Positions 153-37,740 of a DNA stretch of 38,580 nt are shown here, piece by piece. The translations under genes were made by a program, and so were the position numbers. The notes under the pieces are model-generated. The model ran no database searches and was not told where the DNA came from. It saw only the letters and a list, made by a program, of their open reading frames with translations. How positions within the stretch are numbered: the stretch's first letter is position 1; every line of letters begins with the position of its first letter. The stretch is from an uncultured Planctomycetales bacterium (lineage in GTDB: Bacteria > Omnitrophota > Gorgyraeia > Gygaellales > Profunditerraquicolaceae), in contig CAYGZJ010000001.1 in the NCBI GenBank assembly GCA_964354335.1, forward strand, positions 1 through 38,580. Direction: 5' to 3'.

Positions 153-257
153 TATTCCTAGTTAATGGTTATAATCTTACCCTTAATAACGCGAGAATCG
201 CCCAATAATGCCATTAACTAGGAGTCATTAACTAAATGGCGATTTAGAGATAAAGAG
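153..257 (+). repeat. Direct repeat copy 1, flanking the Ehr-type operon on its downstream side. High-identity core 202-257; weaker similarity 153-201.
   Basis: 202-257 matches 7410-7465 at 53/56 positions in the same orientation. 153-201 resembles 7361-7409 at roughly 70 percent by eye. A 12-bp inverted partner is present (157-168 cctagttaatgg vs 211-222 ccattaactagg). Confidence 0.85.
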
Positions 258-827
258 ATAGGTTGAGGAGGTTTGGTGGGAAGGTTGTTCCTTGTCTAAA
301 TGAAGTCTCCCATGTAAGAATGCTAGTAATGTTTTTATAATTATTACTGGGCTTGGTGGGCATCCAGGAATATGCAAAATAACGGGCAAAATATTCTCTA
401 CGCCAGAACAGGTATAATAAGAGTCTTTGAATAAGCCGTCCTTCTTTGTACAGTCTCCCAAAGTAATCACAAATTTCGGATCAGGCATAGCTTCGTAAGT
501 CTTTTTAAGCGCCAGCTCCATGTTCTTAGAAACCGGACCAGTGACTAAAAGCGCATCTGCGTGGCGCGGGCTAGCTACAAAATCAATTCCAAAACGCTGG
601 ATATCATATAAAGGATTAGAGCAAGCGATTATCTCTGATTCGCATGCTCCACAGGATCCCGTATCAACTTCGCGGATATGGAATGACCTGCCGAATTTAG
701 CATGGATGGTCTTCTTAAGCTCTTCTCCTATCTTTTCCAGCTCTTGCGGAAATACAAAACCGGATAAGTCGATCTTTTCAGTAACCTTGCCCTTTTTAAG
801 GCTATTTTTTAGTATATGCAGGTTCAT
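228..827 (-). CDS. NuoB/HycG-like small subunit of a group-4-hydrogenase-related (Ehr-type) membrane complex
   Basis: 199-aa ORF. GSCGACESE, GDCTKKDG and GCPPSP supply the four Cys of the NuoB/HycG-type [4Fe-4S] cluster. It overlaps the large-subunit gene by 4 nt. The last ten codons and the TAA lie inside repeat copy 1. Confidence 0.85.
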   Translation of the reverse strand: MNLHILKNSLKKGKVTEKIDLSGFVFPQELEKIGEELKKTIHAKFGRSFHIREVDTGSCGACESEIIACSNPLYDIQRFGIDFVASPRHADALLVTGPVSKNMELALKKTYEAMPDPKFVITLGDCTKKDGLFKDSYYTCSGVENILPVILHIPGCPPSPVIIIKTLLAFLHGRLHLDKEQPSHQTSSTYLFISKSPFS

Positions 828-2407
828 AAGTCGTTACCTTGATACGATAGGTTAAAACTTTTATTACATAACGGAAAATCCGGAATAATATTCCCAAGCA
901 CCGCAAAAGTCAATCCCTCCCAGTTATGAAACGAAGGGTCTACGATCTTGCAGCGCTCAATCTGACCTTTAGCGTTTAGCCGCGTCCAGACTAATAGCGG
1001 CCCAAGCCAGGCCTCAACATATCCTAAAGCAATGCCTGCCCTTTCACCTGCGTGGACCGAAATCTGCGTATTGCACACGTCAAGTTTTTCCAGACATTGC
1101 ACTATGATCCCGATCGACTCAAATACTTCGCTGCGTCTTACCTTAAGACGCGCTGCAACGTCTCCGGCATGCTCTTTTGCCATTTTAAAATTAAAACTAT
1201 CGTAAATCCCGGGAAAAACCTTTCTTAAGTCCTGCGCAATACCGCTTGCCCTGGCCGCAAGCCCTGTTATACCAAGATCACGCGCTGTTTTAGTGCGCAA
1301 AATCCCTGTTGAGTCAACGCGATCCATAAATGATACACTCGAGAAAAGCATCTCTTCTAGAGAGGTGAAATCTTTTTTAATATTAGCCAGCGCTGTGTAG
1401 GTGAACTCTTTTTTTGCCTTATCAATATCACTTCCTACCCCTCCAACAATATTTATGCCTTTAAGATATCTGGAGCCGCAAAGCTTTTCATTTAACTGTA
1501 AAACCGACTCCTTAATAAGGCTGGCAAACTGAGCAGGAAAAGTAAAGCCTACATCGAGAGCAATACCCCCCATATCATTCGCATGATTATAAAGTCTTTC
1601 AAGCTCTAAATATAAAACACGTAAGACCTGTGCTCGCATAGGAATATTTATGCCTAGTATTTTCTCGGCACTCTGGCAAAACGCCATGCTATACCCAAAC
1701 GCCGCATCTCCGCTTATGTACTCGAAAATCCTTACGGCCTCGTGAATACTTTTGCCCTCCAGAAGCTTCTCTATACCTCTATGCTTCCAGCCAAGCCTTA
1801 TCTCCAGGTTTATGATCGGCTCCCCTGCCACGCTAAACCTGAAATGCCCGGGGCCGATTATGCCTGCATGAACAGGCCCAACAGGCACTTCAAAAATTCC
1901 CTCTCCTTCAACCCGCTTAAATACGTATCTTTGATTCCCAGCAACACCTTCATTTGGTCTGGAGAAATCCTTACGTAAAGGATAAAATCCCTTAGGCCAA
2001 ACCTCATCATGCAACTTAAGGCTCCTAAGATCAGGATTGCCTATTGGCTCAATACCGAACATTTCTTTTATCTCGCGCTCAAAAAGGCTGGCAGAATAAA
2101 TATCCTTTGCAATAGAAGCAAATTGTGGATTACCAGAGGTAGCATCTTGACAAACAAACACCCAAGCATGCATTTGGATACTTAAGAATCCGCAATAAAG
2201 CCTAAACGCATTTGATCCTGACCGTAAATCTTCAGCAAAAAAAGTCCCAACTGCTAATCTAAGATGCTTGTGCAGCAAATTGCAGGCTTTAGCAAAATCA
2301 AATGGATTTACAGTAATATATAATTCATCCGGATAAAGAAAATCCAGATTAATAATATTTATATCCTCAAAAGCGAAAATACTTTTTATGTAATCAGATC
2401 GTATCAT
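824..2407 (-). CDS. HycE/HyfG-like large subunit (NuoC-like N-terminus fused to a NuoD-like core) lacking the NiFe cysteine ligands
   Basis: 527 aa with GPVHAGIIGPGHFRF and LGWKHRGIEKL, typical of group-4 large subunits and NuoD. The expected R-x-C-G-x-C position reads EYISGDAAFGY. The expected C-terminal D-P-C-x-x-C-x-x-R/H reads NLSYQGNDL followed directly by the stop. Confidence 0.8.
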   Translation of the reverse strand: MIRSDYIKSIFAFEDINIINLDFLYPDELYITVNPFDFAKACNLLHKHLRLAVGTFFAEDLRSGSNAFRLYCGFLSIQMHAWVFVCQDATSGNPQFASIAKDIYSASLFEREIKEMFGIEPIGNPDLRSLKLHDEVWPKGFYPLRKDFSRPNEGVAGNQRYVFKRVEGEGIFEVPVGPVHAGIIGPGHFRFSVAGEPIINLEIRLGWKHRGIEKLLEGKSIHEAVRIFEYISGDAAFGYSMAFCQSAEKILGINIPMRAQVLRVLYLELERLYNHANDMGGIALDVGFTFPAQFASLIKESVLQLNEKLCGSRYLKGINIVGGVGSDIDKAKKEFTYTALANIKKDFTSLEEMLFSSVSFMDRVDSTGILRTKTARDLGITGLAARASGIAQDLRKVFPGIYDSFNFKMAKEHAGDVAARLKVRRSEVFESIGIIVQCLEKLDVCNTQISVHAGERAGIALGYVEAWLGPLLVWTRLNAKGQIERCKIVDPSFHNWEGLTFAVLGNIIPDFPLCNKSFNLSYQGNDL

Positions 2408-2408
2408 C

Positions 2409-3872
2409 TTATTTACCTAAAATTAGCTGCTGGCAATTAACAAGTAGATCAAAAAACGCTTGAGGGATCTTTAATCCGAACCCTAATATAAAAATGCCTA
2501 GAAATATTAAAGCTAGCTTTGAACTTAAACCTTCTTTTTGAACAGGCGTTCCTTGAAAGATATTGCCTAAAACTACTCTGCTAATATGATAAAGCAGTCC
2601 TGAAAAAGCAAGGCCGATAAAAATGAATATAAGTGCAGCAATGAAATAAAACTTCCCCTGAAAAGCCGCGACCAAGATTAACAATTTGCTGATAAATATA
2701 GAAAATGGAGGCATTCCTACCAGGGCAAACAATCCGAGAAACATCGCTATCCCCGTAAAAGGCATCGCCTTGATCAACCCCTGCATCTTATCCATGCTGT
2801 TGCTACGGTAGACGCGCACTGCGGAACCCGCGGAAAAAAACATCAGCGCTTTAGTTACTGCGTGGTTAAATGCCTGAAGTAACCCTGCAAAAATCCCCCC
2901 GAAAGCCCCAAAGCCAAGACCTAGAGATACTAAGCCGATATTTTCTACACTGCTATAAGCAAGAAGCCTTTTTAAATCCTTCTGCACAAGGATAAAAACA
3001 CCTGCTACCACGATAGAAAGGATTCCGAATAAAATAAATAGTTTAGCGCTAAATGCGTATCCTACCGCAAGATTCGCCAGTATCACAAAACGCAAAATAG
3101 CGTATAAAGATATCTTAAGCAATACACCGGATAACAGTCCGCTTATAGGAGAAAGCGCCTGGCTGTGCGCATCAGGTAACCAGTTATGCATCGGAGCAAG
3201 TCCTGCCTTAGTACCGTAACCGACAAAGATAAAAACCAAGGCAAGCTTTACAATCTTTGGGCTAAACATGTTTGAACCAGAGAGCATGCTCATCCATTCC
3301 AGGCTTTTTATACCAGCATCTTTTGAAGACGTGTAATAGAAAAATATTATCCCTAAAAGCGCGAAGGTTATGCCCACCGAGCAGATGATAATATATTTCC
3401 AGGCAGCCTCTATTGATTCTTTCACATTATGAAAACCTACCAGGAATGCCGAGATCAGCGTGGTCATTTCTATGGCAATCCAAACCAGAGCCAAATTATT
3501 CGATAGCGGAACCACCAGCATTGTAAGACAGAACAGATCAAATAATTGGAAATAAGCTGTGGCCTTACGGACAGAGGCTTTTCCCTCCTCTACCTCTGCC
3601 AAAATATAGCCAATAGAATATATGCTTGCGGAAAAACTCACTACGGCGGTAACAAGAAGAAAGAAAATGCTTAATGAATCAAGATAAACCAAACCCCATA
3701 AATTTATAGGCGTCATCCCGCTGGAAATAAAATCTTTTAGCAACAAAATACAGACTGCAAGGATTCCTGCGAAACCCAGGGCGTTAATCAGGCCTAGCTG
3801 CTTTATGTTTTTGATAAACAGCGAAAGGGTTAATAAAACAACGGGTATAAGAATAATTAAAACTATAAGCAT
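2409..3872 (-). CDS. HyfF/NuoN/MrpD-like antiporter-type membrane subunit
   Basis: 487 aa, polytopic. The motifs GTKAGLAPMHNWLPDAH and LLAYSSVENIG are typical of NuoL/M/N-family proton-conducting subunits. Confidence 0.85.
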   Translation of the reverse strand: MLIVLIILIPVVLLTLSLFIKNIKQLGLINALGFAGILAVCILLLKDFISSGMTPINLWGLVYLDSLSIFFLLVTAVVSFSASIYSIGYILAEVEEGKASVRKATAYFQLFDLFCLTMLVVPLSNNLALVWIAIEMTTLISAFLVGFHNVKESIEAAWKYIIICSVGITFALLGIIFFYYTSSKDAGIKSLEWMSMLSGSNMFSPKIVKLALVFIFVGYGTKAGLAPMHNWLPDAHSQALSPISGLLSGVLLKISLYAILRFVILANLAVGYAFSAKLFILFGILSIVVAGVFILVQKDLKRLLAYSSVENIGLVSLGLGFGAFGGIFAGLLQAFNHAVTKALMFFSAGSAVRVYRSNSMDKMQGLIKAMPFTGIAMFLGLFALVGMPPFSIFISKLLILVAAFQGKFYFIAALIFIFIGLAFSGLLYHISRVVLGNIFQGTPVQKEGLSSKLALIFLGIFILGFGLKIPQAFFDLLVNCQQLILGK

Positions 3873-3874
3873 GC

Positions 3875-4513
3875 CTATCCTTTTAACGATTTCATCTTTG
3901 AAGTATCAATGTGCGTAAAAAGCCTGTTTACCTTATATACAAATACCTCAATAATGACCACGAAAACAAAAATATCGAAGAAAAGTGCGATCTCCACAAA
4001 AAACGGCATGCCCCCTGCTATGGCGCTTGCCGCAAGAAATATTCCATTTTCCATAACTAGAAGCCCAATAACTTGGCCTAATGCCTTCATCCTGCTGACC
4101 ATTATAAAAAAACCTATACACATTGCTGTTATCGAAAATACAAACGCTGCTGATTCAAATGAATTAGCAAGGGCCATCGCGTTGTGCGCGAATAAATACG
4201 ATAAATACGCAAACACCAGTGCGATTATTAGGGAAAGCTGCGGATTTACGATAAGCCCAAGGTCTTCTTCTACGTTTATGCGGCGCATAATGCGAAAAAG
4301 TACAAGGGGGATAGCGATCACCTTGAGCACAAATACTAAGCCACAAACAATAAACATCTCAAGGTGGTACTGATTTAAGCCCATATATAAGGCATACAGG
4401 AATAAAAAGAAAGACTGAATCCTGAATGCCCTGATCAGGGCAGTTATTCTTTTGGCAACCACTAGAAGAAAAGTAACAACCAAGAAACCGGTTAAAATAA
4501 TGCTTAGAGCCAT
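3875..4513 (-). CDS. HyfE-like small membrane subunit (NuoK-related)
   Basis: 212 aa, about 7 TM segments, with an ENGIFL motif. It sits between the HycD-like and HyfF-like genes, as in hyf operons. Confidence 0.7.
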   Translation of the reverse strand: MALSIILTGFLVVTFLLVVAKRITALIRAFRIQSFFLFLYALYMGLNQYHLEMFIVCGLVFVLKVIAIPLVLFRIMRRINVEEDLGLIVNPQLSLIIALVFAYLSYLFAHNAMALANSFESAAFVFSITAMCIGFFIMVSRMKALGQVIGLLVMENGIFLAASAIAGGMPFFVEIALFFDIFVFVVIIEVFVYKVNRLFTHIDTSKMKSLKG

Positions 4514-4516
4514 GAT

Positions 4517-5401
4517 TTAAAACCCCAGTCCGGCTGCAATCGAAGCAAGCAGCACAATAAAGAAAGAAAAGCTTAGGAAATCAACTACTCTGAAAAGCCG
4601 CATTTTTGCTACAGATATTTCAATTAGGGCAATCACCAGGCTGATAACGGCGATCTTTATCGGGAACACTATCCACTCCCATCTTCCAGATGTCATAAAT
4701 GGAAAAAGATACCAAGAAAGTATGGTAAAGAATATAATTTGCTTAATGTGGCTTGCTAATTCAATAAGCGCCAAGGACCTTCCTGAGTATTCAAGAACCA
4801 TTGCCTCATGAACCATAGTCAGCTCAAGATGTGTTTCCTGGTTGTCTACGGGTATGCGCGATGTCTCAGTAATTGTCACCATAAGAATTGCAAATCCGGA
4901 TAACAAACTTGAGATATTAAAACAACCTATACCTGACATGCACAATACGAAAGCCGCGATAAAAGCTGTGGGTTCAGCAAAACTTGAGATAAACATTTCC
5001 CTGGAAGATCCCATGCCTCCAAATGAACTAGCTGCATCAAGACCGGCTAATGCTAAAAAGAAGCGGCCTAAACCCATTACAAAAAATGTTGCGATCAGGA
5101 TCATTACACAGTTTTCCATGGAATAACCGGGCCATATCAATAGAATCAAAAATAGCGAGCATATGCTGGCTGCAAATAACACTACCGGAGCTGCATAAAA
5201 GATCCATGAAGTATTAAGTGATACCACCTCATCCTTTGAAAAAAGCTTCTGCACGTTATAGTAAGGTTGAAAGATGCTTGGGCCCTTACGCATACGCAAA
5301 GAATTCTTAACCTTGCGAATGAATCCACTTACCAACGGAGCACACAGCACAAGTAAGATGACTTTTCCAGCAACTAAAACTAGATTGTTCAGCGTTATCA
5401 T
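4517..5401 (-). CDS. HycD/HyfC/NuoH-like membrane subunit
   Basis: 294 aa. ETSRIPVDNQETHLELTMVHEAMVLEYSG matches the conserved NuoH/HycD loop pattern (E-x-x-R-x-P-x-D ... E-L ... EYSG). Confidence 0.85.
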   Translation of the reverse strand: MITLNNLVLVAGKVILLVLCAPLVSGFIRKVKNSLRMRKGPSIFQPYYNVQKLFSKDEVVSLNTSWIFYAAPVVLFAASICSLFLILLIWPGYSMENCVMILIATFFVMGLGRFFLALAGLDAASSFGGMGSSREMFISSFAEPTAFIAAFVLCMSGIGCFNISSLLSGFAILMVTITETSRIPVDNQETHLELTMVHEAMVLEYSGRSLALIELASHIKQIIFFTILSWYLFPFMTSGRWEWIVFPIKIAVISLVIALIEISVAKMRLFRVVDFLSFSFFIVLLASIAAGLGF

Positions 5402-5403
5402 GG

Positions 5404-7200
5404 CTAAAATATAGTAGTAATTATTATCAACCCTGCTAAAGTGGCAAAAATATACAAGATATAAAGGTGTATACTCCCCGGCTGCAGCTTTTTCATCTTA
5501 AATGCGGCAGAATAGATCAATCCCAGCAAAGGCTGGTAAAAGTATCGCTTAAATACCGGAGTTGTGTGTGTTTCGTAAGTAAACTTACGTACATGATAAA
5601 AAGAATCTCTTATTTTTTCACTTTTCCTGTAAGGCAATAGAAAAAAGCTAAAGGCTATTCTGAAAGGCTTTGAAAAAGCAGTTGCCGTATATTCATTTCG
5701 GCTGTCCAGTGCATAATATCCACAATCCCAGGTATTATAACGGACTTGTTTAGTGCGTAAACCGAACTTAAACCAAAGAAAGACCGCGATGCCAAGGATA
5801 GCTAAGATTATAGCGATGATCGCAGGTAAAACTGATACAACATTAAAAGACACATCTGCTTTTTCGATACCCAGCGTTGAACGCGAAATGCTTAACAAAA
5901 CCGGCATAATTAATCCGGCCCCGAGACCGAATAAAATCACAAAGGTGGCTAGAATTGCCATGCCGACCTTCATGGAAAAACCGGCTTCCCTTGATTCCTG
6001 AGCACGAACACTCCTCGGTAACGCAAGAAAAGTTATGCCGAAAGCCTTAACAAAACAAGCTGCCGCTAGTCCGCTAGTTAAAGCTAGCGCCGAAGCTGAC
6101 AAAATCATAAAAATTTTAATCCATCCCTGAGAATGTATTACCCCTAAGAAAAATGACTGAAATGTCAGCCATTCGCTGACAAATCCGTTTAACGGCGGAA
6201 GCGCGGAGATACCCATTGCGCCGATCAGAAAAAACGACGCAGTAGCAGGCATTGTTTTTATAAGGCCGCCCATCTTTTCCATATCGCGTAATCCTGTTGC
6301 CTTAAAAACGCTCCCTGAGCAAAGAAACAAAAGCCCCTTAAACAAAGCGTGATTGATCAAATGATACAACCCCGCGCACATAGCTAACACCGCAACTGCC
6401 GCAATGCCTTGACTTCCAAAAAACATTGCTGTCCCTAAGCCTAAAAGGATTATTCCTATATTTTCAACGCTGTGATAGGCAAGTAATTTCTTAAGATCGT
6501 GGTCCATCAACGCATAGATGACTCCGACTAGGCAAGAGATAATCCCAAGCACAAGAATAAACGCGCCCCACCAGGCTAGCCCGGGGCCTAAAAGTGTTAT
6601 GAAGAAACGAATCATGCCGTAAATCGCTACCTTAATCATTACGCCTGACATGATGCTTGAAATATGCGCCGGGGCCTGCGGATGCGCGTAGGGCAACCAA
6701 ATATGTAACGGAACGACTCCTGCCTTGGTCGCAAAACCGATAAACAAAAGTAAAAAAATAACGTTTCGTTCCTGGAGAGGTAGTGAGGTTACAGCGAGTT
6801 TTACTGCAGAATAATCGAAAGAACCTGCGCAGTTATATAGGATAAAAAATGCCGCCATAAGACAGGCGGTGCCGATATGAGTCATTACCAGATAAATCGC
6901 TCCTGCGCGGACAGACTTTTCGTGCTTATAATCAAAAACTACAAGGAAGTAAGAAGCAAGCGACATCAATTCCCAAGACACAAGGAATGAAATAATGTTA
7001 CCGGACAATACTACTGAACACATAGAGAGAGTAAAAATAACTAGAAGCACCCAGGAAACAATCTTCTTTTTAAGCGTTTCTTTATACAAATACCCTATTG
7101 AGAATATTGCCGAAGGAATACAAACAAATCCGATCACAGCAAGAAATAATATTGCCAGCGGATCAATAAAAAATAGCTGTTTTGGCAGTAGATTTATCAT
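5404..7200 (-). CDS. HyfB/HycC/NuoL-like antiporter-type membrane subunit
   Basis: 598 aa. It has the NuoL-family core (ATKAGVVPLHIWLPYAHP, LLAYHSVENIG) and a HycC/HyfB-type C-terminal region containing WDCGY. Confidence 0.85.
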   Translation of the reverse strand: MINLLPKQLFFIDPLAILFLAVIGFVCIPSAIFSIGYLYKETLKKKIVSWVLLVIFTLSMCSVVLSGNIISFLVSWELMSLASYFLVVFDYKHEKSVRAGAIYLVMTHIGTACLMAAFFILYNCAGSFDYSAVKLAVTSLPLQERNVIFLLLFIGFATKAGVVPLHIWLPYAHPQAPAHISSIMSGVMIKVAIYGMIRFFITLLGPGLAWWGAFILVLGIISCLVGVIYALMDHDLKKLLAYHSVENIGIILLGLGTAMFFGSQGIAAVAVLAMCAGLYHLINHALFKGLLFLCSGSVFKATGLRDMEKMGGLIKTMPATASFFLIGAMGISALPPLNGFVSEWLTFQSFFLGVIHSQGWIKIFMILSASALALTSGLAAACFVKAFGITFLALPRSVRAQESREAGFSMKVGMAILATFVILFGLGAGLIMPVLLSISRSTLGIEKADVSFNVVSVLPAIIAIILAILGIAVFLWFKFGLRTKQVRYNTWDCGYYALDSRNEYTATAFSKPFRIAFSFFLLPYRKSEKIRDSFYHVRKFTYETHTTPVFKRYFYQPLLGLIYSAAFKMKKLQPGSIHLYILYIFATLAGLIIITTIF

Positions 7201-7348: not shown

Positions 7349-7360
7349 GAAAATTTGCTG

Positions 7361-7465
7361 GTTTCCCAGTTTATGGCAATATTTTAACCGAAATTATTGC
7401 TAAAAATGGCCAATAATGCCATTAACTAGAAGTCATTAACTAAAGCGCGATTTAGAGATAAAGAG
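7361..7465 (+). repeat. Direct repeat copy 2, on the upstream side of the Ehr-type operon. High-identity core 7410-7465.
   Basis: See copy 1. On the minus strand the core begins immediately after the TAA of the GIY-YIG gene. Confidence 0.85.
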
Positions 7466-7471
7466 GCGGGA

Positions 7472-7750
7472 TTAATCGTGGGATTCGCTTAACTGCATAA
7501 GAAGTGTTTTATCGCCAGATACAAGGGCCGCCTTCTTCTTTTTAGCCCAGCGCTTGATCTGTGCTTCACGTGCTTGCGCACTAGATCTGTTTTGAAACGG
7601 CTCTTTATAAACAACCTCAACCGGCCTGCGATTACTGGTATAATCGCCGCCCTTACCGGCATTGTGCTCGGTTAGTCTGCGGGAAAGGTCGGATGTCGAT
7701 CCAGTGTAAAAACTATTATCTTTACAACGCAGAATATAAACATACCACAT
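7472..7750 (-). CDS. Small GIY-YIG nuclease-superfamily protein (UPF0213/YhbQ-like)
   Basis: YVYILRC..SFYTGSTSDLSRRLTEHN is the GIY-YIG core. I place the start at the ATG at 7750 (MWYVYIL), which has AAGGAG 5 nt upstream. The ORF track extends to 7768. Confidence 0.8.
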   Translation of the reverse strand: MWYVYILRCKDNSFYTGSTSDLSRRLTEHNAGKGGDYTSNRRPVEVVYKEPFQNRSSAQAREAQIKRWAKKKKAALVSGDKTLLMQLSESHD

Positions 7751-7802
7751 ATTGCTCCTTCGACGCACTCGCCTAAACTAAACAACAACTCGCTTGCTCA
7801 GG

Positions 7803-7896: not shown

Positions 7897-7967
7897 TTGC
7901 CCCGCATGGACTCGAACCATGATAACAAGATCCAGAATCTTGTGTCCTACCATTAGACGACAGGGCA
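7897..7967 (-). tRNA. tRNA-Gln (anticodon CUG)
   Basis: Hand-folded 71-nt cloverleaf. Acceptor UGCCCUG/CGGGGCA (U1-A72), D stem GUCU/GGAC, anticodon stem CAAGA/UCUUG with loop UUCUGGA, T arm CAUGG-UUCGAGU-CCAUG, discriminator A. CCA is not encoded. Confidence 0.85.
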
Positions 7968-17983: not shown

Positions 17984-19288
17984 TTATCGTATCCACTTGC
18001 TCAAACGCTCTTTTGTCCGTTCCTTGCCCAAGTAGTATATCACTTCAAAAAGCCCCGGTCCAATAGTTTTTCCGGTAAGCGCCACGCGCAACGGATGGAT
18101 CAGCTCCTTGGATGAAATACCCAACTCAGCCACTAAAACCCGGAATACCTCTTCTATCGCGGCGATATTGAACTTGCCTTCGGCATACAAAACATCAAGC
18201 CGCTCTGAAAAAAGCTTAAATTCCCCGGATAGGTTTCCGGATAAATATTTTTGTTGCGCCTGTGGGTCGATATTGATCTCTTTTTGAAAGAAGAAATCCG
18301 CCCAGTCCACAAACTCATTGAGCCGTGTCAGGCGGGGTTGAAAAAGCTTGATGATAGTTAAAACATACTCTCTATCAAAGCCGTCCGCTTCAATATACTT
18401 CTTTTCCACAAGCTGCGGGAAAAGCTCATCAAGAAGCTTTTCCGGATTTTCTTCCTTAAGATACTGGTTGTTGATCCAGTCCAATTTCTTCATATCAAAG
18501 GTCGCCGCGGTCTTGTTAACATCAGTGATATCAAAGATTTTTATCGCTTCTTTAATATCAATCACTTCCCGGTTATCTCCCGGAGCCCAGCTTAACAGTA
18601 AAAGATAATTCATCAGAGCCGGAGCAAGGTAACCCATTTTGCGGTAATCCGAAATAGCCGTGGCCCCGGTGCGCTTGGAAAGCCTGCCCCCTTCAGCTCC
18701 CATAATAAGCGGCAGATGGGCGAACTGCGGCAGCGGATACCCAAGCGCCTCATAAAGAAGGATCTGTTTTGGCGTGTTGGAAATATGGTCATCTCCGCGG
18801 ATGACATGAGTGATGTCCATCAGCGCGTCATCTACGACGCAGGCGAAATTATAGGTAGGCGTTCCGTCGGACTTTATAAGCACCTGGTCCTTTATCGTCT
18901 CGGCCTCAAATTCGATCTCTCCGCGGATCAGGTCCTTTACCGTTATTTTCTGGGGGGTCACTTTAAAGATTACCGCCTCCCCAGGCTTATCCGGAAGTTT
19001 TTCAGTATAGGCCTTGCCCTCTTTTAGTAATTTATCCGCCTGCTGACGATAGATATCAAAACGCCCACTTTGATAATAGATCTCATCCCAGTTAAAACCG
19101 AGCCAGGAAAGGCTTCCCAGGATCTCATCCACATATTCTTGCTTTGAGCGCTCGCGGTCCGTGTCCTCGATGCGCAAAACAAACTTTCCCCGCTTTGCCT
19201 GGATATAGAGCCAGTTAAAAAGCGCGGTGCGGCTGCCGCCGATATGTAAATTTCCCGTTGGCGAGGGGGCAAAACGGACTCTGATCAT
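17984..19288 (-). CDS. gltX: Glutamyl-tRNA synthetase
   Basis: 434 aa with the HIGH-type motif (PSPTGNLHIGG) and the KMSKS-type motif (RLSKR). Confidence 0.9.
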   Translation of the reverse strand: MIRVRFAPSPTGNLHIGGSRTALFNWLYIQAKRGKFVLRIEDTDRERSKQEYVDEILGSLSWLGFNWDEIYYQSGRFDIYRQQADKLLKEGKAYTEKLPDKPGEAVIFKVTPQKITVKDLIRGEIEFEAETIKDQVLIKSDGTPTYNFACVVDDALMDITHVIRGDDHISNTPKQILLYEALGYPLPQFAHLPLIMGAEGGRLSKRTGATAISDYRKMGYLAPALMNYLLLLSWAPGDNREVIDIKEAIKIFDITDVNKTAATFDMKKLDWINNQYLKEENPEKLLDELFPQLVEKKYIEADGFDREYVLTIIKLFQPRLTRLNEFVDWADFFFQKEINIDPQAQQKYLSGNLSGEFKLFSERLDVLYAEGKFNIAAIEEVFRVLVAELGISSKELIHPLRVALTGKTIGPGLFEVIYYLGKERTKERLSKWIR

Positions 19289-19815
19289 CGTAATCCCATT
19301 CCTTGTTCCAATGCGTTAATGTTAATGCTGATAAGGTCTAATTTGTCCGGCGGGGCGATCTTACGCATCACCTCAATAATGGTTTTTTCTTTAAGGATTT
19401 TCTTCTTGGTAAGATAATTTCCCAATGCGACCATGTTGGCGACTTTTATGTTGCCGAGCTTTATCGCGATATCCGTAAACGGATGCGCTATCACACGGCC
19501 ATCGGAGCCTTCAGAGACATCTACCAGGGAGCTGTTGATAAATAGCAGCCCGCCTTTTTCAAGCCGGGCTTTGAATCGCTGTAGCGACGGAGCGTTCATA
19601 ATGATCAGGATGTCGGCTTTCTTAACCCAGGGGGAGCCGATTTCTTTATCGGAGATGGTCACCATGCAGTGGGCGGTGCCGCCACGCACCTCTGCCCCGT
19701 ATGAAGGGATCCAGGTAACAAACTTTTTCTCCATCATCGCCGCTTCGGCAATGATCTTCCCCAGGAGCATGATCCCTTGTCCGCCTGAACCAGCTATAAT
19801 GATTTTTTCTATCAT
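19285..19815 (-). CDS. 2-oxoacid:ferredoxin oxidoreductase, gamma subunit
   Basis: 176 aa with the N-terminal IAGSGGQGIMLLGKI pattern of POR/KOR gamma subunits. The stop overlaps the gltX start (ATGA). Confidence 0.85.
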   Translation of the reverse strand: MIEKIIIAGSGGQGIMLLGKIIAEAAMMEKKFVTWIPSYGAEVRGGTAHCMVTISDKEIGSPWVKKADILIIMNAPSLQRFKARLEKGGLLFINSSLVDVSEGSDGRVIAHPFTDIAIKLGNIKVANMVALGNYLTKKKILKEKTIIEVMRKIAPPDKLDLISININALEQGMGLR

Positions 19816-19832
19816 AAGTATTTATGAATCAT

Positions 19833-19944
19833 AAATTCAAAGTCTAAAATTAAAAATATAAAACAAGCTTAAAGTCTAAAATTCAAATTTTAAAATTTAT
19901 ACTTTAACTTTGTTTTGATTTTTTTACTTTGAATTTTAAATTTA
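19833..19944. repeat. Family-A AT-rich palindromic intergenic element, copy A1
   Basis: The left arm carries aaattcaaagtctaaaat (19833-19850), identical to 24360-24377 and 31246-31263. The right arm carries ttttttactttgaatttt (19920-19937), identical to 31339-31356. The arms are imperfectly complementary. Confidence 0.85.
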
Positions 19945-19960
19945 ACGTACTTTATCCTCA

Positions 19961-20689
19961 TTACTTAATTCTACCCAAGGGGAATTCTTTAGTCATGCAA
20001 TCCTTTATCCAATCAAGAGACTCTTCGGGAGACAGCCCCCAGTATGTCGGACACGGTGATAATATTTCCACCATTGAAAACCCGACACGGTTAATCTGAT
20101 TTTGGAATGCCTCTTTTATCGCGCGCTTGGTCTTCAATATCTCCGGAACCGAATGCAGCGAGGTGCGGTTAATGTATTTTACTCCGGGTAAAAGCGCGAG
20201 CATCTTGGAAATATGCAGCGGATGGCCCTGTTCATGATGATCCCTGCCAAGCGGGGTAGTCGCGGTCTTCTGGCCCAGCAGCGTAGTAGGCGCCATCTGT
20301 CCGCCGGTCATGCCATAAACAGCGTTGTTGATAAAAACTACGGTCAGATTTTCTCCGCGGTTTGCCGCGTGGATAGTTTCATTGGTGCCGATAGCTGCTA
20401 AATCACCGTCTCCCTGATAAGTAAAAACGATGTTTTCCGGACGCACGCGTTTTATCGCGGTTGCCACTGCCAGGGCCCGGCCGTGCGCTGCCTCTGAACA
20501 GTCAAAATCCCAATAATCATAGGCGATGACTGCGCAACCGACCGGAGCTACGGCGATCACAATTTCCCGTATATCTAATTCATCCACTACTTCCGCTATA
20601 AGGCGATGTACAATACCGTGCCCGCATCCGGGGCAGTAATGCGTAGAGATGTCGCGCAATGATATTGTTCTGGAAAATACTTTTTCCAT
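19961..20689 (-). CDS. 2-oxoacid:ferredoxin oxidoreductase, beta (TPP-binding) subunit
   Basis: 242 aa with CPGCGHG near the N-terminus and the GDGD...NN TPP motif ([11 protein letters not shown]...[15 protein letters not shown]). Confidence 0.9.
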
Positions 20690-20691
20690 AA

Positions 20692-20808
20692 TGTTATTTT
20701 CGTTGGGTTCGTTATTTTCGTTAGGTTCGTTAGGTTCGTTAGGTTCGTTAATGTCGTTTAAAAGTTTTAAACGAAACTGACGATAATAACGGTATTAACG
20801 AACTAAAC
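20692..20808. repeat. Family-B 'TCGTT' palindromic element, copy B1
   Basis: It has six tandem 9-mers ttcgttNNN (20699-20752), a centre cgtttaaaagttttaaacg, and then four inverted (a/g)acg(a/g)NNNN 9-mers. The last 14 nt overlap the alpha-subunit C-terminus and stop. Confidence 0.85.
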
Positions 20809-21850
20809 TATTTAATTTTTTAATAACCTCTTCTTCCGAAGGTATTCCACCTCCGGCCCTTCCAAGAAAAGCCACCGGAGCTTTTCCGTTAAGCGAAAGG
20901 CGTACGTCATCAAGCATCTGCCCGTAAGACATCTCAACAACCAAAAACTTAGCTGTTGGCTTGCGCTTGGCCAGCGCCTTTTCAGGAAACGGCCAGAGCG
21001 TTATCGGCCTTATGAGCCCGACTTTCTTGCCTTTTTCCCGCAGCCGCATCATGGCGCTTTTACAGATGCGCGCCATTGAGCCATAGGCGACCAAAATAAT
21101 CTTTGCGTCATCCACAAACAGGCTTTCCCAGTCCTGTTCTTTCTGTTTTATCTTTGCGTAAGTCTCTTGCAAAATAAGATTGAAGTCCTCAAGCTCAGTA
21201 TCACGCATAAAAAAAGACTTTACGATATTTGGTTTTCTTCCTTTACAGCCGGTCAGGGCCCATGGTTTTTTGACATTTTGAATTTTTAATTTTGAATTTT
21301 TAACCTGCAGAGGTTCCATCATCTGTCCAAGCATCCCGTCCCCTAAAATAATAACCGGATTGCGGTATTTGTCCGCCAGTTTAAAAGCCCTGAACATTAA
21401 ATCATAGGATTCCTGGACTGTTGATGGGGCAAGGACAATGCAATGATAATCGCCGTGTCCGCCTCCGCGCGTAGCCTGAAAATAATCCGATTGCGAAGGC
21501 AGGATATTGCCCAGGCCCGGGCCTCCCCGCATCACATTCACTATTACAACCGGAAGTTGAGCTCCGGCGATATATGATATCCCCTCCTGCTTCAGGCTCA
21601 TACCGGGGCTGGAAGATGAAGTCATGGAGCGCGCGCCCGCGGCAGCGGCACCAAAGACCATATTTATGGCAGCTAGCTCTGATTCTGCCTGAATAAAAAT
21701 ACAGTTTTTTAACGGCATATGCTTTGCCATATAGCCGGTAAGCTCGTTTTGCGGAGTAATGGGGTAGCCGGCATAAAAAGTGCATCCTGCGTCAATGGCG
21801 CCCTGCGCGACCGCCTCATTTCCACTCATTAAGATCCTAGTCTTATTCAT
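20795..21850 (-). CDS. 2-oxoacid:ferredoxin oxidoreductase, alpha subunit
   Basis: The sequence MNKTRILMSGNEAVAQGAIDAGC..YPITPQNE is typical of POR/KOR alpha. I prefer the ATG at 21850 over the TTG at 21865 used by the ORF track. Confidence 0.85.
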   Translation of the reverse strand: MNKTRILMSGNEAVAQGAIDAGCTFYAGYPITPQNELTGYMAKHMPLKNCIFIQAESELAAINMVFGAAAAGARSMTSSSSPGMSLKQEGISYIAGAQLPVVIVNVMRGGPGLGNILPSQSDYFQATRGGGHGDYHCIVLAPSTVQESYDLMFRAFKLADKYRNPVIILGDGMLGQMMEPLQVKNSKLKIQNVKKPWALTGCKGRKPNIVKSFFMRDTELEDFNLILQETYAKIKQKEQDWESLFVDDAKIILVAYGSMARICKSAMMRLREKGKKVGLIRPITLWPFPEKALAKRKPTAKFLVVEMSYGQMLDDVRLSLNGKAPVAFLGRAGGGIPSEEEVIKKLNSLVR

Positions 21851-21956
21851 AATTTTTAAACTCAAAGTCTAAAGCTCAAAAATCAAAGCAATTTTAAAAT
21901 TTAAATTTTAAAATTTGAACTTGTTTTGAATTTTGAGTTTTGAATTTTAAACTTAA
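21851..21956. repeat. Family-A palindromic element, copy A2
   Basis: ctcaaagtctaaagctcaaaaatcaaagc ... gttttgaattttgagttttgaatttt around a tttaaaatttaaattttaaaattt centre. Confidence 0.75.
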
Positions 21957-21976
21957 CTGGTAATTTACCATACTCT

Positions 21977-22180
21977 TTACTTATAAACTTCTATGCAGCA
22001 ATCCGGGCAGATAACCGCGCACAGCGCGCAACCCAGGCATTCCCCGCTATCCTTAAATTTCACCGGCTTAACCCCGCGAAGATTCAATTTGCTATCCGCG
22101 CTGATCAACTCCTTAGGACAGACGCTGATGCACAAAAGGCACCCTTTACATTTATCGCGATTAATGGTTATCTTTCCCAT
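21977..22180 (-). CDS. 4Fe-4S ferredoxin-type delta subunit of the oxidoreductase
   Basis: 67 aa with two CxxCxxCxxxCP motifs (CKGCLLCISVCP, CLGCALCAVICP). Confidence 0.85.
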   Translation of the reverse strand: MGKITINRDKCKGCLLCISVCPKELISADSKLNLRGVKPVKFKDSGECLGCALCAVICPDCCIEVYK

Positions 22181-32085: not shown

Positions 32086-35000
32086 TTACTGTTCCTTGGC
32101 TTCTCTTGCCTTCTTTTCTTCCACGATCTTCTGGGCGATTTCGGTGGGGACCTGCAGGTACTTGGAGAATTCCATAGTGGCATTGGCGCGCCCGCTGGAG
32201 AGCGAGCGGAATGCCGTGGCATAGCCGAACATCTCAGCTAACGGCGCTTCTGACTCGATGATCTTTTGTTTTCCCTTTGAATCCATATTAAGGATCTTGC
32301 CCCGGCGGGAACAGATATATCCTACGCAGGCGTTCACATATTCTTCCGGAGTAGTCACTACTAATGACATGTATGGTTCAAGCAGGACCGGTTTTGCCCG
32401 CATAAAGATTTCCTTGAAGCCCATTATCGCCGCCATGCGAAAGGCTATTTCCGAAGAGTCGACTTCGTGGTAAGAACCGTCATTAAGATCCACCTTGATA
32501 TCCACTATCGGGTAGCCCGCAAATACCCCCTTCTGCATCGCCTCCACAACCCCCTTCTCCACCGCCGGAATATAGGATTGCGGGATCGCTCCTCCTTTGA
32601 TGCTGTTGATAAAATCCAAACCCTGCCCCTGCGCATTAGGCGAAAGCTCCATCACCACATGGCCGTACTGGCCGCGGCCTCCGGACTGCTTGATGTATTT
32701 ACCTTCCCCCTCCGCCGTCTCCTGAATGGTCTCTCGGTAAGCCACTTTTGGCTGGCCCACAATCGCCTCAACCCCAAACTCTTCCTTGAGCCTATCCACA
32801 ATAATTTCAAGGTGCAGCTCGCCCATACCGGTAAGAATTGTCTCCTTGGTTTCTTCGTCTGTCTGCACCATAAAAGTCGGGTCTTCATCCATCAGTTTTG
32901 CCAGGCCCTTGCCTAATTTATCGCTGTCCCCGCGCGACTTAGGCGCAATACTCAAAGAAACCACCGGCACCGGGAACTGTATCGCCTCAAGCAAAACCGG
33001 TTTTTCCGGATCGCAAAGCGTATCTCCGGTGATGGTGTTGGCTAAACCCGGGATCGCCACGATATCTCCGGCAAAAGCGAAGTCGATATTTTCGCGCTGA
33101 TTGGCATGCATCTGCACGATCCTGCCGATACGCTCTTTTTTGTTCTTGGTGCTGTTTAAAATATATGTGCCTGTGCCTAAAAATCCGGAGTAGACGCGGA
33201 CATAGACAAGCTTTCCCATGTGCGGGTCTGCCTGGACCTTAAAAGCGAGCGCGGTCGGCGGCTCATTGACATCAGGATGAAACTCTATTTCCTTCTCCGG
33301 ATCATCCGGATCGTGCCCTTTTACCGCGGGCATGTCCAGCGGCGACGGCAAATAGAGGACTACCGCGTCCAGAAGTTTCTGCACCCCTTTGTTTTTGAAT
33401 GAGGCGCCGCAAAGCACCGGCACAGCCTTGTTGGCCACTGTACCTTTGCGGATGGCCTGAATGAGCTCTTCCTGGGTGATGGAATTGGCATCCTCCAGAT
33501 ATTTTTTCATCAGGACATCGTCAAAGGCGACTGCCCGCTCAACGAGCGTACGGCGGAATTCCGCTGCCTTCTCTTTTAGGTCCTCGGGGATTTCATCGAC
33601 GGTATACTCCTTGCCCAATGTTTCATCCTGGTAGAAGTAGGCTTTCATTTCGATCAAATCCACCACCCCGCGGAAATTCTCCTCGGCTCCGATAGGAATT
33701 TCCAAAGGCAGGCCGTTACCTTCCAGTATCTGGTCGATCCCATTGACCACTGCGTAAAAATCCGCTCCGGTGCGATCCATCTTATTGATGAAGGCGATCT
33801 TGGGAACGCTGTATTTGTTGGATTGATGCCAGACAGTCTCTGACTGCGGCTCCACTCCGCCGACCGCGCAGAAAACCGCGACTGCGCCGTCTAAAACACG
33901 AAGCGACCGCTCGACTTCGGCGGTAAAATCCACGTGGCCGGGAGTATCGATGATATTGATGCGGTAATCCTTCCAGAAACAGGTGGTGGCCGCGGCGGTA
34001 ATAGTGATGCCGCGCTCGCGCTCCTGCTTCATCCAGTCCATCTGAGTCGCCCCATCATGGACTTCGCCGATTTTATGGGATTTGCCGGTATAAAAAAGGA
34101 TCCTCTCGGTAGTGGTGGTTTTTCCGGCGTCGATATGCGCCATGATCCCGATATTGCGCACCAGGCGTAAATCGATTTTGGGAGTCGGCCGCGCCTGCGG
34201 TTGACGCTTTAATTCTTTTTCTTCTTCCACCTGCGCAGCTTCTTCTGTAGGCGCCTGGACCTCTTCCTGCGGAGGTGTTTCCTGCTTTGCGTATTCTTCA
34301 ACAACCGGTTCTGCTACGGGGACTTCCTGTGGCAATATTTCTTGCGGTATTTCTTGGGGAGCCTCTACTTGCGCAGTTTCTACCTTCGGCGGCGTAAGAA
34401 TATCTTCTTGGACATTCGCCGTTTCAGGCGCAGCGCCAGCCTGATGCTGGAGCCGGCTATTAAGATGCGTGATTTCTTCGGTAAGCAACCTGATGCGTTC
34501 TTCTTTTTCCTCGAATTCTTTTTCTAAAACGCTGAACTCTTCATTTAGTTTATTGAATTCTATCTTTGGCACCCACTCGCTTTCCTTTTCTTTTTTCCTG
34601 TATTCCGTAATGGTGGCTAAATGGGCCTTGATGTCATTGGCCAAGCGCTCGATCTGATGCTTTTGCGCTTCTATCTGGTCAGACTTATCTTTGATTTCTT
34701 TATCCAGCCCCTGGATTTTATCGCTTAGCTCGCGGGCTTCCTTAGACAATCCTACACTTTTAGAAAATTCCCTTTCCAGCTCCTGCTCTTTAGCGCTGAA
34801 CTTTCCCCGCAAGTCCAGGTTTTCCGCCTTTACTTTATCCAGCATTTCTTCGGAGGTAGCCACCCAGTCTTTGCGCCGGTCTAATTCTATTTGCAGCTGG
34901 GCAGCTTGCGCCTTTGCCGGTTCTAGCTCATTCTGCATCTGGACAAAACCGGCTTTAGTTACTTCCAATTCATGCTGGAGCGTAACCACCTGAGCCTGCA

Positions 35001-35172
35001 GCCGCTGTATCCTTTGCTCCTGATAATAAGAATCCGAGCCCGGCTCTTTGGGAAGGGCTTGCCGACGGACGCGACCGGATTTTTCTTCGCTGCTGGCGAA
35101 GAAAAGATAAAGGGAGTATATGATAAGTATAACTCCGCAGACTAAAATAATCGGCACAAGAATATTATTCAT
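32086..35172 (-). CDS. Elongation factor G fused to a 332-aa N-terminal TM / coiled-coil / acidic-linker extension
   Basis: aa 333-1028 form a complete EF-G. Motifs present are [31 protein letters not shown] and [10 protein letters not shown]. aa 5-26 form a TM helix followed by KSGRVRRQ. aa ~50-240 are heptad-rich. aa ~245-330 are P/E/Q-rich. There is no in-frame stop anywhere. Confidence 0.8.
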
Positions 35173-37462: not shown

Positions 37463-37740
37463 AGGCTTCGGGGTATTTTACATACTCTGGCTACTGCGGG
37501 TAAAATAAAAATCCCCGCATTGTGCCGTTGGATAGACAGTCTGAACCGATTTGGTTTCAGGTGGGTGCCGCTCTTGAATGCCTAAGCGCTCAAGAAGTTG
37601 AGGCCCCCAGATAGTTAGTGTTGGTTCAACAATTATCAAATTTCCAACGCGCACCGCAGGGATTTTTAAAAGAGCTTTGTCTTGCGAAAGAAGTATACCA
37701 TATATATAAAAGGAAATCAACCCGCTTATTTTTCAAGCAC

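Follow-up and report, generated by a model that had tools for sequence, protein, structure and literature searches.

The window analysed here, the whole stretch of 38,580 nt at positions 1 to 38,580 of contig CAYGZJ010000001.1 (GenBank assembly GCA_964354335.1, deposited as an uncultured Planctomycetales bacterium and placed by GTDB in the Omnitrophota), carries a six-gene operon for a complex of the energy-converting hydrogenase-related (Ehr) class. Its large subunit, EhrL, has lost all four cysteine ligands of the NiFe centre, and the former NiFe pocket appears to be rebuilt and under constraint. The complex is very probably a six-subunit derivative of the group-4 (4f-like) membrane hydrogenases with the architecture of the Q- and P-modules of complex I. 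The operon thus adds one more, somewhat reduced, representative to a class that is known but functionally unsolved, and is not a new kind of system.

The six genes are co-directional open reading frames (ORFs) on the minus strand, running from position 7200 to 228, and they are tightly packed: in the order EhrA to EhrS the gaps measure 2, 3, 2 and 1 nt, and the genes for EhrL and EhrS overlap by 4 nt (ATGA). Families were called with Pfam and NCBIfam profiles (Table 1), and relatives of solved structure were sought as sequence matches in the PDB (with phmmer for EhrL); judged by the profile scores, the family assignments of all six proteins lie far beyond chance. The ORF list and the profiles agree with the gene order given in an earlier reading of the DNA that used its letters and ORFs alone (the sequence-only reading), namely HyfB/HycC-, HycD-, HyfE-, HyfF-, HycE- and HycG-like genes, packed or overlapping. 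For EhrA, EhrB, EhrL and EhrS the best matches of solved structure are subunits of the E. coli formate hydrogenlyase (FHL; PDB 7Z0S). EhrC is matched by no Pfam family and, with the threshold relaxed to E<=1, by no PDB sequence; its place in the module is kept across phyla in our comparison of loci. In the presumed assembly, EhrL and EhrS would be seated on the NuoH-like EhrB, and the membrane arm would be made of EhrC and the antiporter-like EhrD and EhrA. The window reaches only 227 nt beyond the EhrS gene. Two related Omnitrophota genomes have the same six genes in the same order, and there too the operon ends at the small-subunit gene; the flanks are unrelated, with a DEAD-box helicase downstream in one relative, and tRNA-modification and NAD-synthesis genes in the other. 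For these reasons we take the operon to be self-contained, with the small-subunit gene as its predicted end.

Aligned residue by residue with E. coli HycE (7z0s_E; phmmer, E=1.7e-61), EhrL carries Y230-I-S-G-D-A235 where HycE has R-V-C-G-I-C, and N519-L-S-Y-Q-G524 where HycE has D-P-C-Y-S-C; N-D-L527 and the stop codon follow directly. Both motifs had been named in the sequence-only reading, and the alignment places them as it proposed. Pairwise and multiple alignments alike put Ser232, Ala235, Ser521 and Gly524 at the four NiFe cysteine positions, with no cysteine at any of them, and neither ligand motif of the group-4 [NiFe]-hydrogenases (R-x-C-G-x-C; D/E-x-C-x-x-C) is present in EhrL. The hydrogenase profile PF00374 reaches 19.6 bits, under its cut-off of 25.8 bits. 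EhrL consequently cannot ligate a NiFe(CO)(CN)2 centre. The complex I motif R-(L/M)-D-Y (Thermus Nqo4, plant NAD7) falls on the same residues of EhrL: Tyr87 of Nqo4 corresponds to Gly233, and His38, in the beta1-beta2 loop, to Ile184. Tyr87 and His38 are the quinone-site residues of complex I. Read together, the alignments with HycE and with Nqo4/NAD7 leave EhrL without a NiFe site and without the canonical site for quinone. A complex I-type quinone reductase was ruled out as a candidate, the quinone Tyr and His being absent from EhrL. The missing C-terminal extension, to which the sequence-only reading had also pointed, is confirmed by the stop after Leu527; it does not discriminate, because the nearest true hydrogenases, with all four cysteines, lack an extension too, their last residue being the same as that of EhrL. 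EhrL was modelled with AlphaFold2 from a 98-sequence alignment; the model (mean predicted local distance difference test score, pLDDT, 95.7; predicted template-modelling score, pTM, 0.94), has HycE (7z0s_E) as its top Foldseek match in the PDB (TM 0.94, 28% identity), followed by E. coli NuoCD; no Ehr structure was found among PDB entries to April 2026.

The replacements are themselves conserved. Column statistics were drawn from 120 Omnitrophota sequences, 110 other Ehr representatives and the hydrogenases with four cysteines, in which positions 232, 235, 521 and 524 are Cys in 100%. Position 232 is Ser in 78% of the Omnitrophota clade and in 65% of the other Ehr; position 235 is Thr, Ser or Ala in Ehr; Ser521 is found in 99% and 88%, respectively, and Gly524 in 98% and 91%. 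Three aspartates accompany them: Asp234 (100% of Omnitrophota, 86% of other Ehr; Val or Ala in hydrogenases), Asp490 (100% and 72%; Ser in hydrogenases) and the essentially invariant Asp526 (100% and 99%). The beta1-beta2 loop (residues 176-191) is kept at about 100% within the Omnitrophota clade. Because Asp234, Ser521, Gly524, Asp490 and Asp526 are conserved, the former NiFe pocket of Ehr, with its signature S-G-D … S-Y-x-G-x-D-L, appears from these columns to be rebuilt and under constraint, and not degenerated.

A collection of 5.8 billion proteins holds one identical EhrL and more than 100 homologues at 57-74% identity. Those with a named source all come from metagenome-assembled genomes (MAGs) of Candidatus Omnitrophota, and their database labels read 'NADH-quinone oxidoreductase subunit C' or 'Ni,Fe-hydrogenase III large subunit'. 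For a wider view, 1.84 billion cluster representatives were searched with HMMER, and the 150 closest 50%-identity representatives were aligned with MAFFT. Most of them read S/A – T/S/A/E/N – S – G at the ligand positions, and 22 read C-C-C-C. The cysteine-free signature is E-(R)-[IV]-S-G-D-x in the N-terminal motif and N-K-S-F-N-L-S-Y-[SA]-G-x-D-L-stop at the C-terminus, against E-R-I-C-G-x-C … N-K-S-F-E-L-C-Y-x-C-x-D-R-stop in the nearest true hydrogenases. Ehr relatives in other phyla were met in at least 600 genomes of a species-level scan (GTDB, one genome per species), of which the 80 best were used; the search pattern contained the loop Glu discussed below, hence the scan covers other phyla but no Omnitrophota. 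Among these 80 best genomes are Nitrospira, Verrucomicrobiota, Acidobacteriota, Rokubacteria and Firmicutes, members of the candidate phyla radiation (CPR; Falkowbacteria, Daviesbacteria, Saccharibacteria), Thaumarchaeota, Methanosarcinales and Methanomassiliicoccales. In most of the 83 loci, from many phyla, the A-B-C-D-L-S module stands alone, sometimes in the order S-A-B-C-D-L. Six loci of the same layout encode bona fide hydrogenases (C-G-x-C … C-Y-x-C) and, as far as sequence tells, are the closest catalytic relatives of Ehr. In five of the six (Thermincola, Anaerovibrio, Negativicutes, Selenomonas, Desulfotomaculum) the small subunit measures 236-249 aa, and in four of these it has one or two CxxCxxCxxxC ferredoxin motifs; from the sixth, Ectobacillus, no small subunit was recovered. 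A neighbour-joining tree, too crude to tell single from repeated loss of the cysteines, gives the Omnitrophota clade a branch of its own.

This clade departs from the other Ehr at several residues around the pocket. Glu185, in the loop G-P-V-H-A-G-I-I-E-P-G-H-F-R-F, is found in 96% of the other Ehr and in 95% of the hydrogenases, and is Gly in 89% of the Omnitrophota clade. Arg230, the R of R-x-C-G-x-C, has given way to Cys in 77% of the clade, and to Tyr in the window copy; Arg489, present in 100% of the hydrogenases and common in the other Ehr, is Val in 92% of the clade; and His239 is Tyr in 68%. The window copy has one further oddity, Leu468 (CTT, window 1004-1006) in place of the Arg of a W/P-R-G motif, an Arg that 99% of the clade and, family-wide, 95% of the sequences keep; either the variant is real or the consensus of the MAG is in error here. 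Taken over the whole protein, conservation within the clade reaches 97% or more in 156 of the 527 EhrL columns; at only 2 of these 156 does the window copy differ, as is usual for clade members.

Some genomes hold more than one such system. In the related Omnitrophota genome GCA_030650425.1 (our locus L003, 18643-21578), a bona fide Ech-type [NiFe]-hydrogenase cluster lies 8 kb downstream of the Ehr operon; it comprises a NuoI-like ferredoxin, NuoH, NuoB, NuoC and a large subunit with E-R-I-C-G-I-C-S-S-S-H. Since both are kept side by side there, the cysteine-free module is a distinct paralogue and not the decayed hydrogenase of the cell. Two Nitrospirota loci (L041 and L079) carry two complete modules in tandem (A-B-C-D-L-S, A-B-C-D-L-S), the large subunits of which differ in the pocket: S-G-T-S vs S-G-D-T.

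The small subunit of the window, EhrS, has its closest relative of solved structure in HycG (4e-34), and its Cys59, Cys62, Cys126 and Cys156 fall on all four ligand positions of the proximal or N2 cluster of HycG, MbhJ and NuoB, in keeping with the sequence-only reading, which had all four [4Fe-4S] cysteines in place. They are kept in 120 of 120 Omnitrophota sequences and in 55 of 66 family members. There is neither a CxxCxxCxxxC motif nor a NuoI/HycF-like ferredoxin domain in EhrS, in contrast to longer EhrS forms in other loci. The Omnitrophota form is minimal (172-177 aa in the relatives), and the window protein bears a 27-aa C-terminal tail not present in them, owing to read-through into a flanking repeat (see below). 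In the remaining 11 of 66 homologues Asp/Thr/Ser, Glu, Asp/Gly and Asp/Asn stand where the four cysteines would be; the hosts include CPR, Endomicrobiales, Thermoleophilia, Bdellovibrionales and Methanosarcinales (loci L035, L036, L039, L047, L056, L063, L066, L073, L074 and L076). Such an EhrS would be unable to form a [4Fe-4S] cluster, and complexes built with it would be without any redox cofactor. Their EhrL partners keep the full pocket signature: His180, Glu185, Arg230, Ser-Gly-Asp, His239, Arg489, Asp490 and Ser-Tyr-x-Gly-x-Asp. The 4f-like hydrogenase, Ehr with a ferredoxin domain, Ehr with the lone cluster and cluster-free Ehr may be set out as a series, which offers a comparative lead.

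The best PDB match of EhrA is HycC (7z0s_C, 6e-77), and the alignment retains the glutamate of transmembrane helix (TM) 5 (SWE), the TM7 lysine (FATKAG..PLH.WLP.AH), the TM8 lysine, NHALFK and the TM12 glutamate. EhrD matches MbsH (6u8y_H, 5e-42) and MbhH (6cfw_H, 1.5e-40) of Pyrococcus and has the motifs IEM, GTKAG..P.H.WLPDAH, LLK, NHAVTK and PPFSIFISK. In alignments to HycC, MbhH and MbsH both proteins show the TM5 Glu, TM7 Lys, TM8 Lys, TM11 His/Lys and TM12 Lys/Glu; the full Lys/Glu/His set that moves protons in antiporter-like subunits is, by these alignments, retained. EhrB matches HycD (7z0s_D, 2e-21) and MbhM (6cfw_M, 3e-15). EhrA covers positions 76-667 of the HyfB profile and starts 61-70 aa later than the EhrA of other phyla, so that the Omnitrophota protein, shorter by about 65 residues, probably lacks about two N-terminal helices.

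Pfam scans of the other large ORFs found no HycF/NuoI, formate dehydrogenase, NuoEFG or hyp/hycI gene in the 38.6-kb window, which bears out the sequence-only reading on the absence of a HycF/NuoI subunit, an electron-input module and maturation genes. A ferredoxin-type protein of 67 aa (2x[4Fe-4S]) does occur in the window, but it belongs to another operon, about 14 kb from the Ehr genes, as the delta subunit of a 2-oxoacid:ferredoxin oxidoreductase (Table 1); this four-subunit enzyme is likely, from its family, to be a source of reduced ferredoxin in the host. Clustering of the neighbours in 76 loci revealed no conserved gene for a donor or acceptor enzyme beside the Ehr module. Only sigma-54/NtrC-type regulators (10 loci) and ArsR-type regulators (7 loci) recur; apart from regulators, the clusters comprised an ABC ATPase and universal stress proteins. 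The clustering used crude ORF calling, and one 'family' consisted of spurious antisense ORFs in high-GC loci.

The name Ehr (Ech-hydrogenase-related) was coined for GSU0739-45 of Geobacter sulfurreducens, with the subunits EhrA, B, C, D, L and S (PMC7894505; PMC6147122), and was generalised to 'energy-converting hydrogenase-related complexes' by Marreiros et al. 2013, in the form in which PMC4758237 and PMC6349859 cite that work. The literature reports Ehr from Geobacter, Nitrospira, ammonia-oxidising archaea, CPR bacteria, Methanomassiliicoccales and Mycobacterium, and describes the complexes as kin of the group-4 hydrogenases and complex I with no established function (PMC7894505; PMC6147122). 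A supercomplex of formate dehydrogenase and Ehr has been proposed, as has the coupling of a cytoplasmic redox reaction to charge translocation by Ehr (PMC6349859), and the Geobacter subunits are more abundant on formate (PMC7894505). The Geobacter complex (GSU0739-45; Coppi) has the same six-subunit set as the window, a likeness drawn from subunit names and description, not from sequence, and the taxa of the literature (Nitrospira, Thaumarchaeota, CPR, Methanomassiliicoccales) are also those of the loci retrieved here. The fusion of NuoC and NuoD without the four NiFe cysteines, the A-B-C-D-L-S set and the intact cluster site uphold the assignment to this class made in the sequence-only reading. 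From other Ehr the Omnitrophota clade differs by E185G, R230C/Y, R489V and the shortened EhrA; some Ehr, e.g., in Margulisbacteria, have a NuoI-like domain fused to the small subunit, which the window EhrS lacks.

A search of plasmids with EhrL (tblastn) led to rhizobial operons, among them that on p3 of Rhizobium sp. NLR16a, with the order regulator-hyfB-nuoH-hyfE-hyfF-large-small. Its hyq-type large subunit is 38% identical to EhrL over 436 aa and has the motifs G-R-V-S-G-D-S … N-K-S-F-N-C-S-Y-S-G-H-D-L-stop (GRVSGDS…NKSFNCSYSGHDL-stop), and the first two cluster cysteines of its small subunit are Cys55 and Cys58, the positions listed for HyqI in the Hyq paper. From the shared gene order, the identity of the large subunit, the pocket motifs and these two cysteines, rhizobial Hyq is by all appearances an Ehr. 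It keeps Glu185, Arg230 and a full-length HyqB, unlike the Omnitrophota clade, and it adjoins a regulator, forming part of the nif regulon in A. caulinodans. The same six structural genes make up hyqRBCEFGI of Azorhizobium, which its authors read from genetics and physiology as a respiratory 'endo-hydrogenase' (PMC2650096, PMC3357923), conceding that any catalytic site is speculative. The statement in the sequence-only reading that the role is not established thus holds for the Ehr class as described, and has to be amended for its Hyq member, the published genetics of which were read as hydrogenase activity. We do not carry the claim made for Hyq, that of an H2:quinone oxidoreductase, over to a fermentative Omnitrophota bacterium.

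Set against better-characterised systems, the window operon is closest to the 4f-like hydrogenases (L043, L061, L064, L067 and L081; e.g., Thermincola, Selenomonas and Desulfotomaculum), which share its gene order, have large subunits 36-41% identical to EhrL and lack a cleavable extension, but differ by their C-G-x-C … C-Y-x-C, the retained Glu and Arg near the site, and an extra 2x[4Fe-4S] ferredoxin domain on the small subunit. FHL, which supplies the best matches of solved structure (HycC, HycD, HycE, HycG) and onto whose HycE the model of EhrL is superposed, differs by its NiFe site, its C-terminal extension, the ferredoxin subunits HycF and HycB and the formate dehydrogenase FdhF; it has a single antiporter-like subunit and no HyfE, whereas Ehr has EhrA, EhrD and EhrC. 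The MBS/MBX of P. furiosus (6U8Y) and complex I share the NuoB/NuoD/NuoH core and antiporter-like subunits with conserved charged transmembrane residues. MBS, however, has 13 subunits, including the NuoI-like MbsN and a Mrp module, against six in Ehr, and complex I has the quinone Tyr87/His38 (Gly233/Ile184 in the window EhrL), NuoA/J/K/N and an N-module; Pfam found none of NuoA/J/K/N, NuoEFG or another electron-input module in the operon or the window. The Mrp antiporter has no NuoB/D/H cap, in contrast to Ehr. The window holds no seven-subunit MrpA-G set and no MrpB/E/F/G families, only the MrpA/D-like EhrA and EhrD (partial NCBIfam matches under the cut-off), which carry the conserved transmembrane Lys/Glu/His residues of antiporter-like subunits.

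How such a complex might work is a matter of inference. Tentatively, and with somewhat less than even confidence, we regard Ehr as a machine that translocates H+/Na+ without turnover of H2. The rebuilt polar and acidic pocket (Ser232-Gly-Asp234, Asp490, Ser521-Tyr-x-Gly524-x-Asp526) and the invariant beta1-beta2 loop would then act as a coupling or gating element towards EhrB and the membrane arm. The lone [4Fe-4S] cluster would be structural or redox-sensing, reducible directly by ferredoxin because there is no NuoI-type wire, and would not relay electrons towards a substrate to be reduced; in its working the complex would resemble a hydrogenase less than it would a secondary cation/proton transporter of the Mrp type that bears a regulatory cap. 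What suggests this is the cluster-free lineages: a pocket that served as a reduction site would be expected to drift after loss of the cluster, no such drift is seen, and ion translocation gated or coupled by the cap would fit that constancy. The missing NuoI/HycF subunit, the lack of a recurring donor or acceptor gene among the neighbours and the differing flanks of the Omnitrophota operons also speak against a substrate-reducing pocket. Pushed further, the same retention of the whole pocket signature in cluster-free members (CPR, Methanosarcinales and others) would make Ehr the first complex I/hydrogenase-type machine without electron transfer, in which the old NiFe/quinone pocket is a conserved non-redox ligand or ion site that gates a cation/proton antiporter or couples an ion gradient to a non-redox reaction of the cap; this stronger proposal we hold to be rather unlikely. 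Under it the Omnitrophota Ehr would be further derived: it would have retained the cluster but shed the Glu of the loop, two arginines of the pocket and the first two EhrA helices.

Several points weigh against a translocator with a gating cap. The universal retention of the cluster cysteines in the Omnitrophota, and their presence in five-sixths of the family, is what would be expected of an electron-transfer enzyme; a structural role would fit it too, so that it does not discriminate. Every biochemically characterised relative known to us (complex I, MBH, MBS, FHL) is redox-driven, and to our knowledge a complex I-like machine working without electron transfer has never been demonstrated. 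The cluster-free cases belong to other lineages, and the Omnitrophota pocket is altered (E185G, R230C/Y, R489V, H239Y), so the clade may act differently. Finally, no ion-binding site was identified in the sequences, and the gating role assigned to the pocket derives from conservation.

The conventional view, a redox-driven ion pump, draws on much of the same evidence. Reduced ferredoxin would pass electrons through the EhrS cluster to a small acceptor in a cavity between EhrL, EhrS and EhrB, be it sulfane sulfur, the acceptor type of MBS in P. furiosus, or some other oxidant in solution or in the membrane, and H+ or Na+ would be exported via EhrB, EhrC, EhrD and EhrA. The invariant cluster ligands of the clade, the intact coupling loop and membrane-arm residues, the 2-oxoacid:ferredoxin oxidoreductase that would supply the ferredoxin, and the redox drive common to all characterised relatives speak for it. 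MBS is a NiFe-free relative that works as a ferredoxin-driven pump, and MbsL and MbsJ are detectable homologues of EhrL and EhrS. The redox-coupled charge translocation of PMC6349859 and the rise of Geobacter Ehr on formate (PMC7894505) point the same way. Yet an electron-entry subunit of the NuoI type and a conserved partner gene are both missing, the quinone Tyr/His and every NiFe ligand are gone, the near-universal loop Glu185 is lost in the clade and Arg489 has become Val, and a reduction site is hard to square with cluster-free members that keep the same pocket signature. We consider such a pump possible, at under an even chance and only a little behind the translocator with a gating cap. 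That H2 is oxidised or evolved at a site without the four canonical cysteines, as claimed for Azorhizobium caulinodans Hyq, we find highly improbable. The rhizobial operon is demonstrably of the same family as that of the window, deletion of hyqRBCEFGI impairs diazotrophic growth and H2 evolution has been attributed to Hyq (PMC2650096, PMC3357923); the parts of these papers that we could consult, on the other hand, report no activity of a purified enzyme, and the Ehr of CPR bacteria and M. tuberculosis have been judged by the respective authors to be incapable of acting on H2. The four ligands are lacking throughout the family, hyp/hycI genes are missing from the window, and the window EhrL is without the arginine of the PRG motif (R468L). 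The Omnitrophota clade, moreover, lacks Glu185, presumably the equivalent of the proton-gate Glu of hydrogenases. A non-functional relic, i.e., a decaying hydrogenase gene cluster with no current role, is scarcely credible. One might cite the lost catalytic ligands, R468L, the read-through tail on EhrS and the GC content of the operon, which is below that of the rest of the window; the six ORFs are nevertheless intact and tightly spaced, the more than 100 homologues keep their full length, and the Ser/Gly/Asp replacements are conserved across phyla. A pseudogene was rejected as a candidate on the intact ORFs and on the mere two deviations among the 156 clade-invariant sites.

The Ehr are widespread: nitrifiers, acidobacteria, methanogens, CPR bacteria, mycobacteria and rhizobia all have them. 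Annotation routinely mistakes them for 'hydrogenase' or 'NADH-quinone oxidoreductase subunit C', and a metabolic reconstruction that derives H2 metabolism or a complex I from such genes is wrong. The class stands at the evolutionary junction of the membrane hydrogenases and complex I, and its function would show how the coupling machinery is driven or gated. To this the window adds an Omnitrophota lineage and a stripped-down variant; it makes the function no easier to test, the host being uncultivated. The interest lies in the class-level puzzle, and there the comparative leads may help: the conserved Asp-rich remodelled pocket and the cluster-free members that keep it are testable in cultivable hosts.

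Table 1. Features of the Ehr operon and of its surroundings, in window coordinates
Feature	Position	Strand	Description
EhrA	5404..7200	-	598 aa; HyfB/HycC/NuoL-type antiporter-like subunit; PF00361 2e-57; NF005086 HyfB 1e-181
EhrB	4517..5401	-	294 aa; HycD/NuoH-type membrane subunit, peripheral-module anchor; PF00146 7e-28
EhrC	3875..4513	-	212 aa; HyfE-like small membrane subunit; NF008556 (hydrogenase 4 membrane subunit HyfE) 4e-22, full length
EhrD	2409..3872	-	487 aa; HyfF/NuoM/N/MrpD-type antiporter-like subunit; PF00361 7e-52; NF005044 HyfF 6e-129
EhrL	824..2407	-	527 aa; fused NuoC and NuoD/HycE-like; PF00329 3e-16, PF00346 3e-36
EhrL codons Y230-I-S-G-D-A235	1703..1720	-	in place of the NiFe motif R-x-C-G-x-C; Asp234 is a conserved gain
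EhrL codons N519-L-S-Y-Q-G-N-D-L527	827..853	-	in place of D/E-x-C-x-x-C-x-D-R; stop at 824-826
EhrS	228..827	-	199 aa; NuoB/HycG-type small subunit, one [4Fe-4S] site; PF01058 1.5e-25
EhrS cluster cysteines	Cys59 651-653, Cys62 642-644, Cys126 450-452, Cys156 360-362	-	from alignment to HycG, MbhJ and NuoB
Direct repeat, about 116 nt	142-257 and 7350-7465		brackets the Ehr operon exactly; copies 78% identical
GIY-YIG-domain gene	7472-7768		just upstream of the Ehr operon
tRNA-Gln(CTG)	7897-7967		just upstream of the Ehr operon
2-oxoacid:ferredoxin oxidoreductase operon	19285-22180		four subunits: delta (21977..22180), alpha, beta, gamma

The operon is bracketed by a direct repeat (Table 1). 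Within its 53-nt core the two copies agree at every one of the 50 positions that the search pattern fixed, where chance would give no such match. An inverted repeat of 12-13 bp (CCTAGTTAATGG…CCATTAACTAGG) lies inside each copy, and the copy downstream of the operon provides the last codons and the stop of EhrS. The 116-nt repeat has no match in the JGI metagenome contigs, folds no better than its shuffles (z = -0.8) and is covered by no Rfam family; a scan for promoters and terminators gave no more sites than in shuffled sequence. The GC content is 0.39-0.43 across the operon and 0.45-0.52 elsewhere in the window. The repeat, the GC content, the GIY-YIG and tRNA genes upstream and the non-conserved flanks in the relatives together hint at lateral movement of the Ehr cassette; the repeat itself may be the mark of a mobile cassette, a repetitive extragenic palindromic (REP)- or terminator-like element, or simply a local intergenic element.

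Other, AT-rich intergenic repeats (AAATTCAAAGTCTAAAATTCAAA-type, 28-79 nt, in 5-7 copies) lie between housekeeping genes at window positions 19.8k, 21.9k, 24.4k, 27.6k and 31.3k. The rest of the window also contains, on the minus strand, a 6S/SsrS RNA gene (37508-37665; Rfam RF00013, 63 bits) and a gene for an EF-G-family GTPase of 1028 aa (32086-35172), whose recognised domains begin at residue 338, after an N-terminal extension of about 335 aa without an assigned domain.

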